A program made the translations under genes and the position numbers. From positions 65,236 through 92,760 of the IMG/VR virus record IMGVR_UViG_2974615235_000001: a stretch of 27,525 bases of DNA. One strand, given 5' to 3'. This DNA comes from a virus (taxonomy: Duplodnaviria; Heunggongvirae; Uroviricota; Caudoviricetes). Positions 3,351-26,466 of this stretch are shown here, piece after piece (within the stretch, counting starts at the first letter, position 1; the number at the start of each line of letters is the position of its first letter). Under the pieces are notes generated by a model. It searched no databases. It had not been told where the DNA came from and worked only from the letters and a program-made list of their open reading frames with translations.

Positions 3351-3713
3351 ATGGGTATGACAACAAAGCAACTAATTCAAGTCCTGAATATGGCTGAAAA
3401 GAAAATAAATGGGGCGCTGTCATTAGATAAAGAGGTAATAACTTACAAGTTAGATATAGAAAATAAGAAGGTTATCGTACAAAAGATTGAACTCGTTTAC
3501 AAAGATGTGATCAGATGTGGGCACATTGGAAGCGGAAGACAATGGAAAACTAAATCATGGGTGAAAGATGAGAATACACGGTCTACAATTTTCGAAGGTA
3601 CTGCAAAAGATACTATTGCTTTTCTGGCAGACTACCAACGAAAAGTTTTAAAGAAAGTGGATGTAAATGCTAAAAAAGATGATGACGATTTTTTAGGTCA
3701 TTTTGGCTTCTAA
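3351..3713 (+). CDS. Hypothetical early protein (120 aa)
   Basis: ORF track; AAGGT SD. Confidence 0.85.
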   Translation: MGMTTKQLIQVLNMAEKKINGALSLDKEVITYKLDIENKKVIVQKIELVYKDVIRCGHIGSGRQWKTKSWVKDENTRSTIFEGTAKDTIAFLADYQRKVLKKVDVNAKKDDDDFLGHFGF

Positions 3714-4130: not shown

Positions 4131-4147
4131 TAATAACACTCTAAAAC

Positions 4148-4173
4148 AAAGCCCCTTCTACAGGGGCTTTTTT
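4148..4173 (+). terminator. Rho-independent terminator, probably bidirectional
   Basis: AAAGCCCCT-TCTAC-AGGGGCTTT followed by TTT; A-rich run (AAAACAAA) on the other side. Confidence 0.85.
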
Positions 4174-4561
4174 ATTGCTTGCAATAAGAGGGCATCTTTA
4201 AAGATTCCATCTACTAAGATTAAACACCACCGTATAGCGGCATAGGAGCCCCGCTACGGCTTTAAAAACTTATCCCTAACACAATGTACACCTTAACGTT
4301 TAAAACGTTACTACGGGCTTTATACAACGTATAAACACTATGTTTGTGTTGTAGTGTTAACCTCTAAAGATTGGTTCTTATTAACGTAGTTAATAGGGTA
4401 CATCTTATTAATTACATTAATAGATTAAGACCCTAACAATTAATTGTTAAAGTATACCTTTGTAGTTTTGTAACCTTCATACCCTGCTACTATCTGTTAG
4501 TTATTTTTTGTTAGCTTGCTAACTGTTTATTACTTCATACGTAAGTATATAGATTGTCCCT

Positions 4562-4577
4562 TATCAACTAGTTGATA
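4562..4577. promoter_or_regulatory. 16-bp perfect palindrome matching the IHF core consensus on both strands
   Basis: TATCAACTAGTTGATA; WATCAA-N4-TTR is matched by TATCAACTAGTTG. Confidence 0.45.
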
Positions 4578-4652
4578 GATTGTGCCCTACTAACCCTGCT
4601 ACTACTTACCAGTTATTTTGCCCGAAGTGGCAACCAATTCCACCCTCCCCCT

Positions 4653-5029
4653 TGCAAGTACCTTGCCAACTTTGTACCTCTAAAGTATTGCCCCCTAATA
4701 ACTACGTTATTAAAAAATATCCTTTTATATATATTAAACTAGAAATTCTCTATTAGAAGGTGTCAAAAAGGTATCATTTGCTACCTTAAATAATTATTCA
4801 CTAATAATGCATAAGTATTCCTAGCATTAATCATACCAACTTTTTGCACACTAATGGTGCAATTTTCCAATTTATAGAGTTCTCCTAAAAGATGACCTAC
4901 GGCATAGGGTAGTACCTAAATGAGCTTAGAATGCCATACAGGAGCTTTTAGAAGGGGTCACACTATTGGCATATACCTTGCTTAAAGAAATATATGGCAT
5001 GAAGTATGCTATAGCAAGTACCTTGCCAG
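4653..5029. promoter_or_regulatory. Cluster of five sigma54-like -24/-12 (GG-N10-GC) elements
   Basis: Minus: TTGGCAAGGTACTTGCA (4653-4669), TTGGTATGATTAATGCT (4823-4839), CTGGCAAGGTACTTGCT (5013-5029). Plus: TTGGCATATACCTTGCT (4966-4982), ATGGCATGAAGTATGCT (4994-5010). Confidence 0.6.
4845..4861. promoter_or_regulatory. NtrC-like enhancer palindrome
   Basis: TGCACACTAATGGTGCA versus NtrC consensus TGCACCA-W3-TGGTGCA (15/17). Confidence 0.4.
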
Positions 5030-5340
5030 AGTGTCACATTTTGAAAGATTATTCTTTTATATGTATATAAGAAGAAAAAGGTATCATCAGGGTGTCAAAA
5101 AGGTGTCATTTTCAGAGAGGAATAATTATGAGGATATATTGCATATTCATGCAAGGGTTCAAAGTTGCACAGGTATGCATGTTAAGCGGGTAATTATTCA
5201 TATTACTTTTTGTTAGGTTGTTATTCTACATAGATATTTTACTTTTATGAGAAAGTGTGGTATGGGAGAGTGGTCTAGGTTCAACACCCAATCTAAAGAA
5301 CCTCAATCACATGAACCTACATATTTGGTAGATTTAAACT

Positions 5341-5540
5341 TAGTAAAGGGGTTAATTTAGTAAAGGGTATATTTTGGAGAAAATAAATATAAGAAAAATA
5401 CTTCTTTGGTAGGATATTTTATATGAAGGATATTTCTAAGAAAGGGTATATATTTCAAAGGTATACACTAAGAAAGGGGATATTTTAAGAAAGGTAGATA
5501 TTTTATAAGGTATTGTTTTGTAAGGAAATGTATATTTTGG
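5341..5540 (+). repeat. Degenerate tandem array of about 7 AGG-N(0-5)-ATATTT units
   Basis: aaagggtatatttt, aggatatttt, aaggatatttc, aaagggtatatatttc, aaaggggatatttt, aaaggtagatatttt, aaggaaatgtatatttt. Confidence 0.65.
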
Positions 5541-5683
5541 TAGTTATTTGGTGTTTTTAGTAGGTTTTATGAAGATACTGTCGTGGTAAGGTATCTAGGA
5601 GGGTAGATAATGCTGTAGGACGCTCTGTAAGGGCCTCTGGGAGGAGTTCTCTATAAAGTTACCCTGTTGGGTAGGGTGATACT

Positions 5684-5713
5684 AAAAAGCTCCCTAAATT
5701 GATTAGAGAGCTT
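5684..5713 (-). terminator. Rho-independent terminator of the leftward array
   Basis: Minus strand AAGCTCTCTAA-TCAAT-TTAGGGAGCTT (one G-U) followed by a T-run, about 40 nt after the last stop. Confidence 0.75.
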
Positions 5714-5751
5714 CTCAGAGAGAGGGAGGGTTTCTTATGAGGGAAGTGGTA

Positions 5752-7956: not shown

Positions 7957-8159
7957 AACACCTCCACTTCTTTAATCATTAAATGCGCAACTCCTTTACC
8001 AGCAAGTTCGTTGTGTAGTCCCTCTTGATAGTGCATAACTAACTGACCTGCATCATCGAAGCTATGATAACGTTCTACTAGTTTATCCTCACTCTCAGAT
8101 ACACATACTAAATACTCCCACTCATAGTGGTCATAACTATAACTAAATAAACCTTTCAT
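7953..8159 (-). CDS. Hypothetical protein (68 aa)
   Basis: ORF track; GGAGG SD. Confidence 0.8.
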   Translation of the reverse strand: MKGLFSYSYDHYEWEYLVCVSESEDKLVERYHSFDDAGQLVMHYQEGLHNELAGKGVAHLMIKEVEVL

Positions 8160-8162
8160 ATT

Positions 8163-8552
8163 CTAACCCCTCCAAATGTTATTCTCACCAACATCAATAC
8201 CTTTAAGCTTATACACCTCATCTTGAAGTTGTTCTATACGTAAATCTTTAGATTCTAAAGCCCTCTCAAGCTCCTCTATACGCATCTTAGCTTGTATTGA
8301 TGCTCCTACCTCAATCATCTTCTTTCTAAATGCTTGTAGAGGGGTACTGCCATTCCATGAACAACCTATACTGCCATGACAGAAGTTATCTTGCGTGTAT
8401 CCCTCAAACACTTGTTGCATTACATACTCGATCACTTCATCTCTACATGCTAAGGCTTCATAGAACGCTAACACTTCCTCTCTCGACATAGGGTAGAATA
8501 GTTCGTGAGGGTCGTCAATAGTTATTGTTACTTTTGCGTCATGTATTTTCAC
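8163..8552 (-). CDS. Hypothetical protein with C-terminal coiled coil (129 aa)
   Basis: ORF track; GAGGAG SD before the GTG. Confidence 0.8.
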   Translation of the reverse strand: MKIHDAKVTITIDDPHELFYPMSREEVLAFYEALACRDEVIEYVMQQVFEGYTQDNFCHGSIGCSWNGSTPLQAFRKKMIEVGASIQAKMRIEELERALESKDLRIEQLQDEVYKLKGIDVGENNIWRG

Positions 8553-8852: not shown

Positions 8853-9043
8853 TTTGATTGTTCCTCTTTAAGTTCCTTCCAATTATTACCCTCTTTATAT
8901 GACAGATATTGGTAGTTGCCATCCTCATCTGCAATACTGTAAGAGAAGTTGCACCTACCTACACTATGAGATCTAAAGGTAAGACTAAAGAATGTCTTAA
9001 ATATAAACCACAGAATCTTTCTTCTACTTGGGTAAGTTGTCAT
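8849..9043 (-). CDS. Hypothetical protein (64 aa; start moved to ATG 9043)
   Basis: In-frame ATG with AAGG SD near the upstream stop. Confidence 0.65.
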   Translation of the reverse strand: MTTYPSRRKILWFIFKTFFSLTFRSHSVGRCNFSYSIADEDGNYQYLSYKEGNNWKELKEEQSK

Positions 9044-9482
9044 CGCCTTGATCCTTGCGTAGTTGCATGCCAAAAGCGCAGATTGCTTCACCCACAGCAC
9101 CAAAAGAGTAGTCACCTTTAAAATCATATTCGTTTAAAAGGAAGTGGTTTAGGGCATCCACCGCTTTAATTTGCTGCTCTAGGGCGAATTTGTTTAGTAA
9201 CTGTTTTGTCTCGTCGCAAACTTCACTCCAACCCTCAACAAAGCCAACACCGTCTACGTATCCAGTTTCGTCAGCGTGGGTTATGGCAACAATAAGTAGT
9301 TCCAACTCCTTAACACGCTCATTAGCCTTTGCTAGTTGTTCTGTTATCTGCTCAATTTCCTCTCTCATACAGAGAGTATCTTCATGCAGGTTATATATGA
9401 CGCAGGTGTATGAGTCCGTAGCAGCTATATCCATAATGTCTTCTTCACTTTTCCCGTCACTCCAGTATGTTTTATTGTCCAT
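9024..9482 (-). CDS. Coiled-coil hypothetical protein (152 aa)
   Basis: ORF track; heptads EIEQITEQLAKANERVKELE. Confidence 0.8.
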   Translation of the reverse strand: MDNKTYWSDGKSEEDIMDIAATDSYTCVIYNLHEDTLCMREEIEQITEQLAKANERVKELELLIVAITHADETGYVDGVGFVEGWSEVCDETKQLLNKFALEQQIKAVDALNHFLLNEYDFKGDYSFGAVGEAICAFGMQLRKDQGDDNLPK

Positions 9483-10287
9483 TCTCTTTCTCCCATCTCT
9501 TAATCGTTGATAAACTAACCCCTAGCATATCAGCCACTACCTTCTGTGTAAAGTTTTTACTACGTAGTAGTTTAGCTTTCTCTTTATTAGGGAGTTCTTC
9601 CATGCCAGTGATTTCTTTAAGTGTAGATATGTCACTACTCTGTAACTCTACCTTACCTTCTAAGTATATGCTATTGTTTTCTAGGATGTCAACCTTTTCT
9701 TCTAACCCTGTCAAAGTTTCGTGAAGAGTGACTCCTTTAGAGAGTTCATTGAGTTGATTATTGAGTGTAGAGGCTTTCTTGAGGGCTGTTCTGGGCAATG
9801 TACCTTTCTTAGACATGTCTTTTTGTTTATTGTGTAGCTCAGTGTGCTCTTCTTGAGATATACCCTTAGAGAGCCTCACAGGGGCGATATCATCGAAGTG
9901 TTTCACTACATCCTTACTATAATAATACCCTCTACTAGCCATATCTCTAATATCCTCCACTTTCTCTCCGTGAATAGGTGCAATTTCTGTGTAGGCATCA
10001 ATAGGTTTACCCCCTTGCCCTAAGATATAGGCGTAGGCACTCTTAGCTAAGTCTAATGTGATGTACCTCTTAGGTTCGTACCCTTCCTTAGATTGTTCTA
10101 CTGCTTGTACACGTTTCCTATTAACCTTAGCTTGAGCTTCAATGTCATTCCTTGTGTAGAATCCATAGTGTATCATTAACTCTGTGAATTTATCTCCTAT
10201 GATTTTCATTCTAAGGGAGTGGTCTATGTCCGTAGATACAAGGGAACATGCTTCTTTGTATATGTCGTCTGATGTTTTGTCTGTCAC
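9472..10287 (-). CDS. DNA-binding protein with coiled coil and C-terminal helix-turn-helix
   Basis: C-terminal KAKLLRSKNFTQKVVADMLGVSLSTIKRWEK is a classic HTH. Confidence 0.75.
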   Translation of the reverse strand: MTDKTSDDIYKEACSLVSTDIDHSLRMKIIGDKFTELMIHYGFYTRNDIEAQAKVNRKRVQAVEQSKEGYEPKRYITLDLAKSAYAYILGQGGKPIDAYTEIAPIHGEKVEDIRDMASRGYYYSKDVVKHFDDIAPVRLSKGISQEEHTELHNKQKDMSKKGTLPRTALKKASTLNNQLNELSKGVTLHETLTGLEEKVDILENNSIYLEGKVELQSSDISTLKEITGMEELPNKEKAKLLRSKNFTQKVVADMLGVSLSTIKRWEKENGQ

Positions 10288-23925: not shown

Positions 23926-26466
23926 ATGGGGGTGGATAGAGTGGCTATTCTTTTTAGAGACACATTTACTGAATCGTCTAACACAAACCTAATAGACCAT
24001 ACGCCAGAGCAGGGTGGGCCGTGGGTTTATGAAGCGGGCGTACCAGATAACGCAGCGATAGTCAGAAGCGAAGACGAGCTTAGGCTGAACGGCTCGATAG
24101 TTGATGGGTTTTATGTGTACGACGGAACTGCAAATGCTGGCGGGTATATAGCCACCACTCCTGCAAGCTCTCTTGTAACACCAGAAAAATATTGCTGTAT
24201 ACGACTTGTCGATAGTAATAATTTTTTTGGAATAGAGTTTAGAGGTACAGGGTCGAGCGGCGTTGGCTTTGTTAAATCTGTCGGCGGGGTGATAACTGAC
24301 CTTTACTCAGAAACACCAGAGGCAGGTGCTGTCTATTACTTAGATGATAATGGTAATAGCTTAGTATTTAAAAAAGACAACGGCGCAACAACAACACTTT
24401 ATACAGAAAACGATTCTGAGTTTTCGACAGAAACTAAAAAGGGTTTTGTTAGTTTGGGGACTGGCAATAGTAACCCGTCAACATACTACGAATCGGGAAC
24501 GCTAGAAGCGCCCACAGGTGTAACGATTAACTCCCTTTCTGATTACAGCGCAAAGCCTCGCGACGCTAATGGGGATGCCACGTTTACAGTTTCGGGTGGG
24601 TGTCCAGACGGAACAAGCGCGATAGAATACAGTTTTGACGAAATAACATGGTTGACACTGGACGCATCGCCGAGCGGGGGTGCTTACAGCGGCACTGTGG
24701 TTGTTAATGGGCAGACTGACATTTTTGTGCGCTCGGCAGATGACAACGCATTAACCGCGAGCGTAGTTGGCATTACTTCAGCTATGCCGATTGTTTTGTG
24801 GGGTCAATCGAATTGTGATGGACGTGGCATAAACAATCAAGCAGTTGCATCAGGCTCAATCGTACCACTGATGTACAAGAGCGGTGCTGTTACTCAAATG
24901 GCAGACCCCACAGGGATTACAGTTGATTCTGCGGGGAGTTTATGGCCTTTGGTTGTTAAATATTTTATTGACCAAGGCATTCCAGTTGTAATGGCTAACG
25001 TGGCGCAGGGTGGCAAGACCGTTGCAGAATTCGAGCCGTCAACCTCTCTCTACTCAAGAATATCTGACTTCGCCGCTAACTTCGGCTCGCCAGAATTGGC
25101 GATAAGTGTAATAGGTGAAGCCGACAGTGGAGGCACTACAAAAGCCGACTTTAAGACGCGATATTTGAATATCGCCCAAACCATGAACACGGATTACGGC
25201 ACAGAGACCTATGCCGTTAAGTTTCCTGTAGGAACAGCGACCAACACGACAACGCAAACAGAAATACGTGAAGCCTACGACGAGTTGATAGATGAAAATG
25301 CATTTATTAAGTTCGGCGGCGACTTGTCTGTCATTGATATTGACAGTGGTATAGGCCACGACAGCTTACACTTAAAAACAGACTCACATTTATCTGAAGG
25401 GGATGTGATAATAAGGTCTGCGTTAGCTGGTATAGTGCCCGATGTGACCAAGCCAGTTATCACACTACTAGGTACTCCATCGGTAGTGATAACAAACGGT
25501 AGTAACTATACGGACGCAGGTGCAACGGCGAGCGATAACATTGACGGAGATATTACCTCCAACATTGTCACTGTAAACCCTGTTAATACGAACGTATCTG
25601 CAACCTACACGGTCACATACAACGTTACAGATTCGGCAGGTAACGCAGCAGACGAGGTAACTAGAACGGTTACAGTTCAAGACGCTGCGTCAGACAACCA
25701 ACCACCAACCTCAAACGCAGGTGCAGACCAAACCAACATCGCAGCAGGCGCAACAGTAACGCTAAACGGCACAGGTTCAACAGATTCAGATGGTACAATT
25801 GTTAGTTACGCGTGGACACAGACAGCGGGTGACATAGTAACGTTAATTAGTGCAACATCGGCTAGCCCTACGTTCACAGCGCCAACGACAGCTAACGCAC
25901 AGACGCTAACATTTGAATTAACTGTTACTGATGATGGTGGATTAACTAGTGCACCTGACTCAGTTGATGTGCAGGTAAATGCCCTTACATTGCCAAGTGT
26001 GTCTATAAGTGCAGTATCTCAGGTCAACACAGGTCAGAGTTTTTCTCCTACAGTGACAGTTTCTGGGTATGACAATCTCTTGTGGGAATGCACTAGTGGA
26101 CAATCCCCTAGTTTCTCTTCTACTACAGCAGAAGCACCTTTCATTACTCTTAATGAAGGGGGCGTACACACTTTCAGACTTACTGCAACTAATATCTCTG
26201 GTAGTGTTAGTGACACCTTCAACATCACAGGAATGGTTCAAGTGGTTGAGTCTGCCTTAAACCTCTCATGGGAAGGTCTTCCTGACGGAACATACACAGT
26301 GTTGTTTATAGACAGAGATAACGATAGTGTACTTTCAAGAAGTGTAACCTCCTCTAATGAAGCAGCTGCAGTGACTTTACCTTTACCAGTTGGAACTAAA
26401 GTAGATTACTATTGGTATAATGAGACCTCTGGAGATGCTGTGTTGAATACAGGAGCCACTGAGTAA
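23926..26466 (+). CDS. Modular SGNH (SASA-type) carbohydrate esterase with DUF5011 Ig-like and PKD-like domains, probably virion-associated (true start may be GTG 23941)
   Basis: GQSN (24802-24813), AQGG, GEAD, DSLH blocks; KPVITLLG..DAGATASD..TYTVTYNVTDSAGN (DUF5011); PTSNAGADQT..VTLNGTGSTD..SYAWTQ..LTFELTVTD (PKD). Confidence 0.8.
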   Translation: MGVDRVAILFRDTFTESSNTNLIDHTPEQGGPWVYEAGVPDNAAIVRSEDELRLNGSIVDGFYVYDGTANAGGYIATTPASSLVTPEKYCCIRLVDSNNFFGIEFRGTGSSGVGFVKSVGGVITDLYSETPEAGAVYYLDDNGNSLVFKKDNGATTTLYTENDSEFSTETKKGFVSLGTGNSNPSTYYESGTLEAPTGVTINSLSDYSAKPRDANGDATFTVSGGCPDGTSAIEYSFDEITWLTLDASPSGGAYSGTVVVNGQTDIFVRSADDNALTASVVGITSAMPIVLWGQSNCDGRGINNQAVASGSIVPLMYKSGAVTQMADPTGITVDSAGSLWPLVVKYFIDQGIPVVMANVAQGGKTVAEFEPSTSLYSRISDFAANFGSPELAISVIGEADSGGTTKADFKTRYLNIAQTMNTDYGTETYAVKFPVGTATNTTTQTEIREAYDELIDENAFIKFGGDLSVIDIDSGIGHDSLHLKTDSHLSEGDVIIRSALAGIVPDVTKPVITLLGTPSVVITNGSNYTDAGATASDNIDGDITSNIVTVNPVNTNVSATYTVTYNVTDSAGNAADEVTRTVTVQDAASDNQPPTSNAGADQTNIAAGATVTLNGTGSTDSDGTIVSYAWTQTAGDIVTLISATSASPTFTAPTTANAQTLTFELTVTDDGGLTSAPDSVDVQVNALTLPSVSISAVSQVNTGQSFSPTVTVSGYDNLLWECTSGQSPSFSSTTAEAPFITLNEGGVHTFRLTATNISGSVSDTFNITGMVQVVESALNLSWEGLPDGTYTVLFIDRDNDSVLSRSVTSSNEAAAVTLPLPVGTKVDYYWYNETSGDAVLNTGATE

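Follow-up and report, generated by a model that had tools for sequence, protein, structure and literature searches.

Why should a phage genome keep a cluster of elements resembling host sigma-54 promoters in a stretch of DNA that holds no gene for them to drive? Alone among bacterial sigma factors, sigma-54 binds DNA tightly yet needs an ATP-driven activator to start transcription, and its enhancer-dependent promoters share the consensus YTGGCACG-N4-TTGCW. The cluster considered here belongs to Alteromonas phage vB_AmeM_PT11-V22 (V22), whose host is A. mediterranea PT11. The window, meaning the whole stretch of 27,525 nucleotides that was analysed, is the final 27.5 kb of the 92,760-bp virus record, and genome coordinates equal window coordinates plus 65,235; positions below refer to the window unless marked as genome positions. 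The gene content of V22 includes proteasome/HslV-like, PhoH-like and Clp protease genes, and its low-G+C region ends at genome 70,988. In the paper that described the V22 genome, neither promoters nor non-coding RNAs were reported.

The sites are located within a 1.6-kb ORF-free gap (4131-5751) between two convergent gene blocks, a rightward block of small genes on the left and a leftward block of DNA-metabolism genes on the right. At the left border, a bidirectional terminator hairpin (4148-4170, both strands; -13.8 and -15.7 kcal/mol, z about -3) closes the rightward block, and a second terminator-like hairpin on the minus strand (4224-4243) is a possible end for leftward transcripts of the gap. 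At the right border, a hairpin followed by a U-run (5688-5712, minus strand; -16.5 kcal/mol, z -3.4) ends the leftward block, which contains the HslV-like gene; this hairpin was overlooked by a simple terminator scan. Because both gene blocks end in terminators, the inner 1.5 kb (4171-5687) is insulated from flanking transcription. Both terminators have counterparts in L003, a sister phage known from a 93.6-kb contig with a 66% identical flanking protein: the left one is conserved at 9638-9684, and the right one corresponds to 8073-8103 on the plus strand, where letters have changed and the pairing of the stem is kept. L003 is the sole close relative that keeps the gap. A profile search of viral contigs for additional relatives returned only two and none further, a comparison of the gap with GenBank phages in near and distant modes gave no DNA similarity, and a metagenome scan yielded a contig identical to L003 (L068) and one unrelated contig sharing a 26-mer.

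Candidate sites were scored against the 13 positions of the sigma-54 consensus, with GG and GC exactly 10 nt apart, and starts were predicted at the usual 12-nt distance from the GC. Four strong sites match TGGCA-N7-TGC and agree with the consensus at 10-12 of 13 positions. Two point rightward on the plus strand, namely P1 (TGGCATATACCTTGC, 4967-4981; 11/13; predicted start about 4993) and P2 (TGGCATGAAGTATGC, 4995-5009; predicted start about 5021), and two point leftward on the minus strand and are identical in sequence, namely P3 (TGGCAAGGTACTTGC, 5028-5014; predicted start about 5002) and P4 (TGGCAAGGTACTTGC, 4668-4654; 12/13; predicted start about 4642). A weak minus-strand site, P5 (TGGTATGATTAATGC, 4838-4824), has the form TGGTA-N7-TGC (TGGTAT...ATGC), matches at 10 of 13 positions and is without an aligned counterpart in L003. 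In both leftward strong sites the sixth position is A, which is rare among other phage sites. An earlier note on this DNA, prepared from its letters alone, had described five such sites, a 15-nt identity between 4654 and 5014, a TGCTATAGCA junction at 5007-5016, palindromes at 4845-4861 and 4562-4577 and a hairpin at 4148, and all of these elements were found where it had placed them.

The bare GG-N10-GC pattern is uninformative, with 251 matches in the genome. The fuller pattern TGGCA-N7-TGC is far more selective: five matches occur in the window against 0.29 +/- 0.62 in shuffled sequence, and none of 100 shuffles reaches five. Four of the five lie within 375 bp, and the whole V22 genome contains eight, half of them in the gap. 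A further minus-strand site with a perfect consensus (TTGGCACACTATTTGCT) was observed at genome 63825-63839, 1.4 kb to the left of the window start, in a separate 835-bp ORF-free gap of the early region; it too is without a downstream gene, and a degenerate opposing half (TTGGCATG...) faces it.

The sister phage allows selection on the sites to be measured. Four of the five TGGCA-N7-TGC sites in the entire L003 genome fall in the homologous gap, while the whole genome of a more distant relative, G002, contains no such site. In the alignment of three V22 sites with three L003 sites, counted as eight core and seven spacer letters per site, 1 of 24 core letters has changed as against 14 of 21 spacer letters (Fisher p = 1.2e-5). 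P1 aligns with TGGTATGTTATATGC, the pair formed by P2 and P3 is aligned and kept at L003 8821-8854, and the positional counterpart of P4 is TGGCACACCTTTTGC (9033-9047), which points the same way and lies about as far from the left terminator. The spacing of the sites is identical in the two phages, and the conservation of the 10-nt spacing in related phages, which the earlier note had put forward as a check, holds in L003, where cores and spacing are kept while spacers diverge. As judged from counts and alignments, these comparisons show that the sites far exceed chance, are of the sigma-54 type and are under purifying selection with fixed spacing.

The most distinctive part of the cluster is the mirror-image pair formed by P2 on the plus strand and P3 on the minus strand (4995-5028). 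In this 34-bp element, TGGCA-N7-TGCTATAGCA-N7-TGCCA, two sites overlap head to head, and their predicted starts point away from each other. Such an element should fit just one polymerase and would then constitute a bidirectional core. The mirror pattern (20 letters) was found in 57 viral contigs that form about 40 independent groups with unrelated flanks and G+C contents of 0.32-0.61, whereas 596 Gb of prokaryote genomes contain two occurrences, about the chance level. Base preferences at the positions that the pattern leaves free were read from 118 half-sites and another 129 sites (independent sites at most 700 bp from mirror elements, in unrelated viral contigs); they are T at positions 0 and 12, Y at 6, R at 7 and W at 16-17. 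Since these preferences reproduce the sigma-54 consensus in about 40 phage lineages, they support the sigma-54 reading, which is well supported by the sequence comparisons as a whole.

Across lineages, head-to-head pairs account for 64% of sites, and the members of a pair are mutually exclusive, with -12 elements 3-8 bp apart. Five complete phage genomes each concentrate their sites in a single locus of 100-600 bp and not before operons, a concentration that fits a binding array as well as a promoter. Unpaired sites show no bias relative to the next gene (28 co-oriented and 23 opposed across lineages, with crude ORF calls). The clusters usually occupy a non-coding gap of 0.4-1.6 kb, often between divergent operons; in at least six other lineages they lie upstream of terminase genes at a distance of a few kb, and in several (e.g., L007/L008, L041 and L034) they stand at the upstream end of their block. 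Such surroundings are compatible with a promoter hub, with an origin-like hub and with a binding array alike. The densest array seen is on L005, a 73-kb viral contig of 52% G+C, where three tandem 34-bp mirror elements with a 49-bp period are accompanied by further sites (1013-1144).

If sigma-54 polymerase does bind here, an activator is needed. Searches of V22, its two relatives and 48 further carrier records, of which 11 are complete, gave no Sigma54_activat or Sigma54_DBD domain above cut-off, and Pfam and PHROG scans of the neighbouring proteins gave nothing relevant. Because the phage encodes no activator, any activation must come from the host; Alteromonas presumably has rpoN and ntrC, as is generally the case in polar-flagellated Gammaproteobacteria. 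NtrC enhancers are TGCACC-N5-GGTGCA dyads, usually present in at least two copies ahead of the sigma-54 promoter. In V22, a palindrome of the NtrC type, TGCAC-N7-GTGCA (4845-4861), agrees with the enteric consensus at 15 of 17 positions, is the sole copy in 92,760 bp and, taken at its centre, precedes the predicted P1 start by about 140 bp. Two other lineages carry a motif of this type at 124-282 bp from their mirror element, as against none in 324 kb of control sequence. The enhancer proposed in the earlier note thus gained from its uniqueness, its position and its recurrence, and lost from its absence from the L003 gap; since the sister phage does not keep it, the NtrC-like site may at best be a V22-specific plug-in, and the link to NtrC is plausible.

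The IHF site proposed in the same note fared worse. The perfect 16-bp palindrome at 4562-4577 carries the IHF core consensus on both strands and is unique in the genome. In the IHF arrangement, WATCAANNNNTTR lies between enhancer and promoter; the palindrome matches that consensus and not that position, being located at +65 to +80 from the predicted start of P4 and about 400 bp from the other sites. Given its position downstream of the nearest promoter and its absence from the L003 gap, an IHF role is rejected as unsupported, and the palindrome is more likely to be an operator for a dimeric protein. Other candidate binding sites are direct repeats on the plus strand. GGTGTCA-N4-GGTATCA (4759-4776), with its halves one helical turn apart over an A tract at about -117 to -134 from the predicted P4 start, is a candidate protein-binding site, either an enhancer or an iteron, and three GGTRTCA repeats with an 11-nt period (5080-5108) lie at about -78 to -106 from the predicted start of P3. 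The orthologous repeat module of L003 has the same architecture in different letters (CGACA-A6-CGACA).

These repeats are part of a larger design, for each of the identical 15-mers at 4654 and 5014 sits in one copy of a duplicated, roughly 160-nt module composed of a site, an A+T-rich tract and GGTRTCA repeats. The two A+T-rich elements (4704-4745 and 5036-5077) are 74% identical; the first belongs to repeat families D2, D5, D8 and D9, with a spacing of 332, and the second to family D2. A conserved block on the plus strand (TTTATAGAGTTCTCC..., 4871-4892) has an inverted degenerate copy at 5636-5657 (repeat family I2), and the motif is related to intergenic cassettes at genome 28,264 and 31,791. 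Farther right, a non-coding block (5120-5743) is 70-72% identical to L003, as high as the adjacent gene, without a conserved reading frame. Within it lies an iteron-like array of co-oriented AAGGKATATTTT-type repeats on the plus strand (5335-5545), with a period of about 17 nt and degenerate copies (69% matches), and L003 retains repeats of this type at 8240-8430. An exact 26-mer of this array also occurs in L069, a 3.9-kb metagenome contig of 47% G+C (3557-3582) that is otherwise without similarity to V22.

No product could be assigned to any of the sites. All ORFs in the gap are of at most 61 aa and none has a frame conserved in the sister phage, which agrees with the earlier observation that no ORF follows any site. 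A six-frame comparison with the L003 gap for a hidden small gene gave short, stop-interrupted matches in all frames and no conserved ORF, and no Rfam family was detected in the gap at E <= 1 except terminator look-alikes; by ORF, frame-conservation and Rfam searches, no gene or known RNA lies downstream of any site. The folding of the two predicted transcripts is modestly above that of shuffled sequences (z about -2) and not decisive. The central claim of the earlier note, that the sites are -24/-12 elements of the sigma-54 type without a gene to drive, is supported by the conserved cores, the conserved spacing and the lack of an ORF.

The explanation preferred here, with a probability of about 0.5, is that the sites are real host sigma-54 promoter elements that fire non-coding transcripts in a terminator-insulated control region. 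We infer that host RNA polymerase carrying sigma-54 (RpoN) would recognise the four strong sites and the weak one, and that a single holoenzyme would load on the mirror pair in either orientation, giving divergent starts about 19 bp apart, at about 5021 rightward and about 5002 leftward. The complexes would stay closed until a host AAA+ activator bound to an enhancer acted on them; NtrC at 4845-4861 would be the best candidate in V22, and a second candidate enhancer would be the GGTRTCA repeats that precede the two leftward sites. The products of firing would be non-coding RNAs of about 0.4-0.85 kb, kept within bounds by the flanking terminators, and the rightward RNA would cross the conserved iteron-like array. 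Promoters not dependent on sigma-54 may also be active in the gap.

In favour of this promoter reading stand the enrichment of sites, the conservation of their cores in L003, the consensus at free positions, the bracketing terminators, the NtrC-type palindromes near the mirror element in three independent lineages (V22 included), the precedent of Pseudomonas phage YuA described below and the clusters near terminase genes in at least six lineages. It has to be set against the absence of a gene or conserved RNA structure downstream, an NtrC-like site that is single and unconserved, the lack of orientation bias, the 64% of sites in exclusive pairs, the absence of an activator domain, the pile-up at one locus and the A at the sixth position of the two leftward strong sites.

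Several of these counter-arguments would be expected if the array instead parked or trapped polymerase, holding sigma-54 holoenzyme in stable closed complexes that seldom, if ever, fire. Replicating phage DNA could then deplete the host's small supply of sigma-54 and silence the flagellar, nitrogen and stress regulons, or the complexes could separate the two convergent gene blocks as protein roadblocks or insulators. A gap with no gene to drive, the missing activator in V22 and the 48 other carrier records, the single dense cluster per genome, the unpaired sites without orientation bias, a mirror design common in phages and at chance level in prokaryote genomes, and the second orphan consensus site of V22 in another ORF-free gap (genome 63825-63839) all agree with a trap. 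However, overlapping mirror pairs should, by the known footprint of the holoenzyme, fit only one, and a halved capacity would be odd for a sponge; NtrC-type palindromes recur at enhancer distance, clusters head late operons in other lineages, and captured holoenzyme would also lock up core polymerase needed by a phage without a polymerase of its own. A trap in this strict sense is considered rather unlikely. Somewhat wider, and still tentative, is the idea that phages of many lineages carry a dedicated array that captures host sigma-54 polymerase on mirror sites independently of any gene; whether the polymerase so captured would be held from host regulons or be poised at a replication or control hub near DnaA and NtrC sites, this version too is put forward only as a possibility. 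An origin of replication is a further option, with iteron-like repeats and A+T-rich tracts as its frame and the sigma-54 sites supplying transcriptional activation or an RNA primer. The co-oriented array with its period of about 17 nt, the two A+T-rich tracts beside direct repeats and the conservation of the non-coding block agree with it, as do the location of clusters in the largest non-coding gaps, usually between divergent operons, and the arrays of two to six perfect DnaA boxes that 5 of 40 other lineages carry at most 300-400 bp from their mirror element, an enrichment of 34- to 64-fold. The V22 gap itself, by contrast, has no good DnaA box and lies between convergent blocks, where departing forks would collide with oncoming transcription; the Pfam and PHROG scans revealed no initiator gene beside it, and its repeats are degenerate. 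For V22, an origin is judged improbable.

The remaining alternative is that the boxes have nothing to do with sigma-54 and are operators for a phage-encoded or other DNA-binding protein whose sites happen to resemble the -24/-12 consensus. Each site does contain the short inverted repeat GCA-N7-TGC, two share GCAAG-TAC-CTTGC, and the neighbouring direct repeats differ between V22 and L003, which may reflect a co-evolving phage protein. Yet the sites are asymmetric at position 12 and at the letter after TGC, the inner GCAAG/CTTGC symmetry is lost in the sister phage, and the motif is common to about 40 unrelated lineages of G+C 0.32-0.61, a distribution better accounted for by a universal host factor than by a single phage protein shared among them. 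This alternative appears very improbable. Its most specific form, in which a phage protein binds GCA-N7-TGC palindromes as a dimer, had been named in the earlier note as an outcome that would overturn the sigma-54 assignment. It was rejected on the asymmetry of the 129 independent sites, in which position 12 is T in 74% of cases where dimer symmetry demands R, and the C that this symmetry requires after TGC is present in only 15%.

DnaA boxes (TTATCCACA) directly beside the mirror element were observed in several unrelated viral contigs, namely L008 (2738-2797), L055 (9931-10055), L038 (341-371) and L056 (2620-2677). They hint that control regions with adjoining DnaA boxes might also be origins or be regulated by DnaA. 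In the V22 gap, a search for DnaA boxes found none of quality. Transcription-activated origins are known from other phages: the T7 primary origin and T4 oriF and oriG rely on promoters for phage or sigma-70 polymerase. Like the V22 gap, they combine promoters with A+T-rich DNA and repeats in a non-coding stretch; in V22, in contrast, the sites are of the sigma-54 type, and an origin role for the gap is a candidate only.

With regard to promoters, the closest textbook counterpart is glnAp2, where NtrC sites lie at about -140 and -108. V22 resembles sigma-54 promoters of this kind in the 10-nt GG/GC spacing, the agreement at 10-12 of 13 consensus positions, the NtrC-type palindrome about 140 bp upstream, and the A+T-rich DNA between the candidate enhancer repeats and two of its sites. 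It differs in having no downstream gene, in its five sites within 375 bp on both strands, in the overlapping mirror pair and the single NtrC-like site, and in being a lytic phage without an activator gene. Among published lytic phages, one case of dependence on host sigma-54 was found, Pseudomonas phage YuA, for which a secondary source credits experimentally shown sigma-54-dependent promoters to earlier work (Ceyssens et al. 2008, as cited in PMC10914365). YuA, too, is a virulent phage that has neither a sigma-54 nor an activator of its own and uses host -24/-12 promoters. According to its annotation (NC_010116), its three promoters are at 38.4, 40.9 and 47.2 kb; they are dispersed, co-oriented with and directly before or inside structural or lysis genes, whereas YuA has no clusters, mirror pairs or orphan sites and none of its promoters matches TGGCA-N7-TGC. 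The statement of the earlier note that no characterised phage system is like this one must therefore be narrowed, as sigma-54 promoters do exist in a phage, but it stands for the arrangement, since those of YuA are dispersed and drive genes. Bidirectional initiation from one short stretch also has a parallel in symmetric sigma-70 promoters, for which Warman et al. (bioRxiv 10.1101/2020.01.31.928960) report that promoter elements of the two strands coincide. In both cases a single short stretch can, or for V22 could, drive divergent transcription; the sigma-70 symmetry, however, is intrinsic to the -10 hexamer, whereas pairs of the V22 type consist of two complete asymmetric sites placed head to head. 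A search of the literature on clustered or mirror-image sigma-54 sites in phages found none, and the design is apparently undescribed.

What is new here is the quantitative test of selection against a sister genome, together with the co-occurrence of NtrC motifs and DnaA boxes with mirror elements. In about 40 lineages, each genome has one dense cluster around overlapping mirror pairs, without a phage-encoded activator. Nitrogen limitation is the normal state of marine hosts. Phage development may be tied to a host signal of this kind, non-coding RNAs may be fired at an origin-like region, or host polymerase may simply be trapped. Each of these outcomes would be new biology. Should the tentative view of a gene-independent capture array prove right, the arrays would represent a new class of host-factor-capturing element, with V22 as its first cultivable model. 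Both V22 and A. mediterranea PT11 grow in the laboratory, which provides a cultured, testable phage-host pair.

Elsewhere in the window, an 846-aa ORF on the plus strand (23926-26466) stands out by its G+C content of 47% in a 37% genome. It contains PKD and Ig-like domains and shows a weak, sub-threshold match to a SASA-type acetylesterase, with no PHROG match, and it may be a recent acquisition with a role in surface binding or receptor modification.
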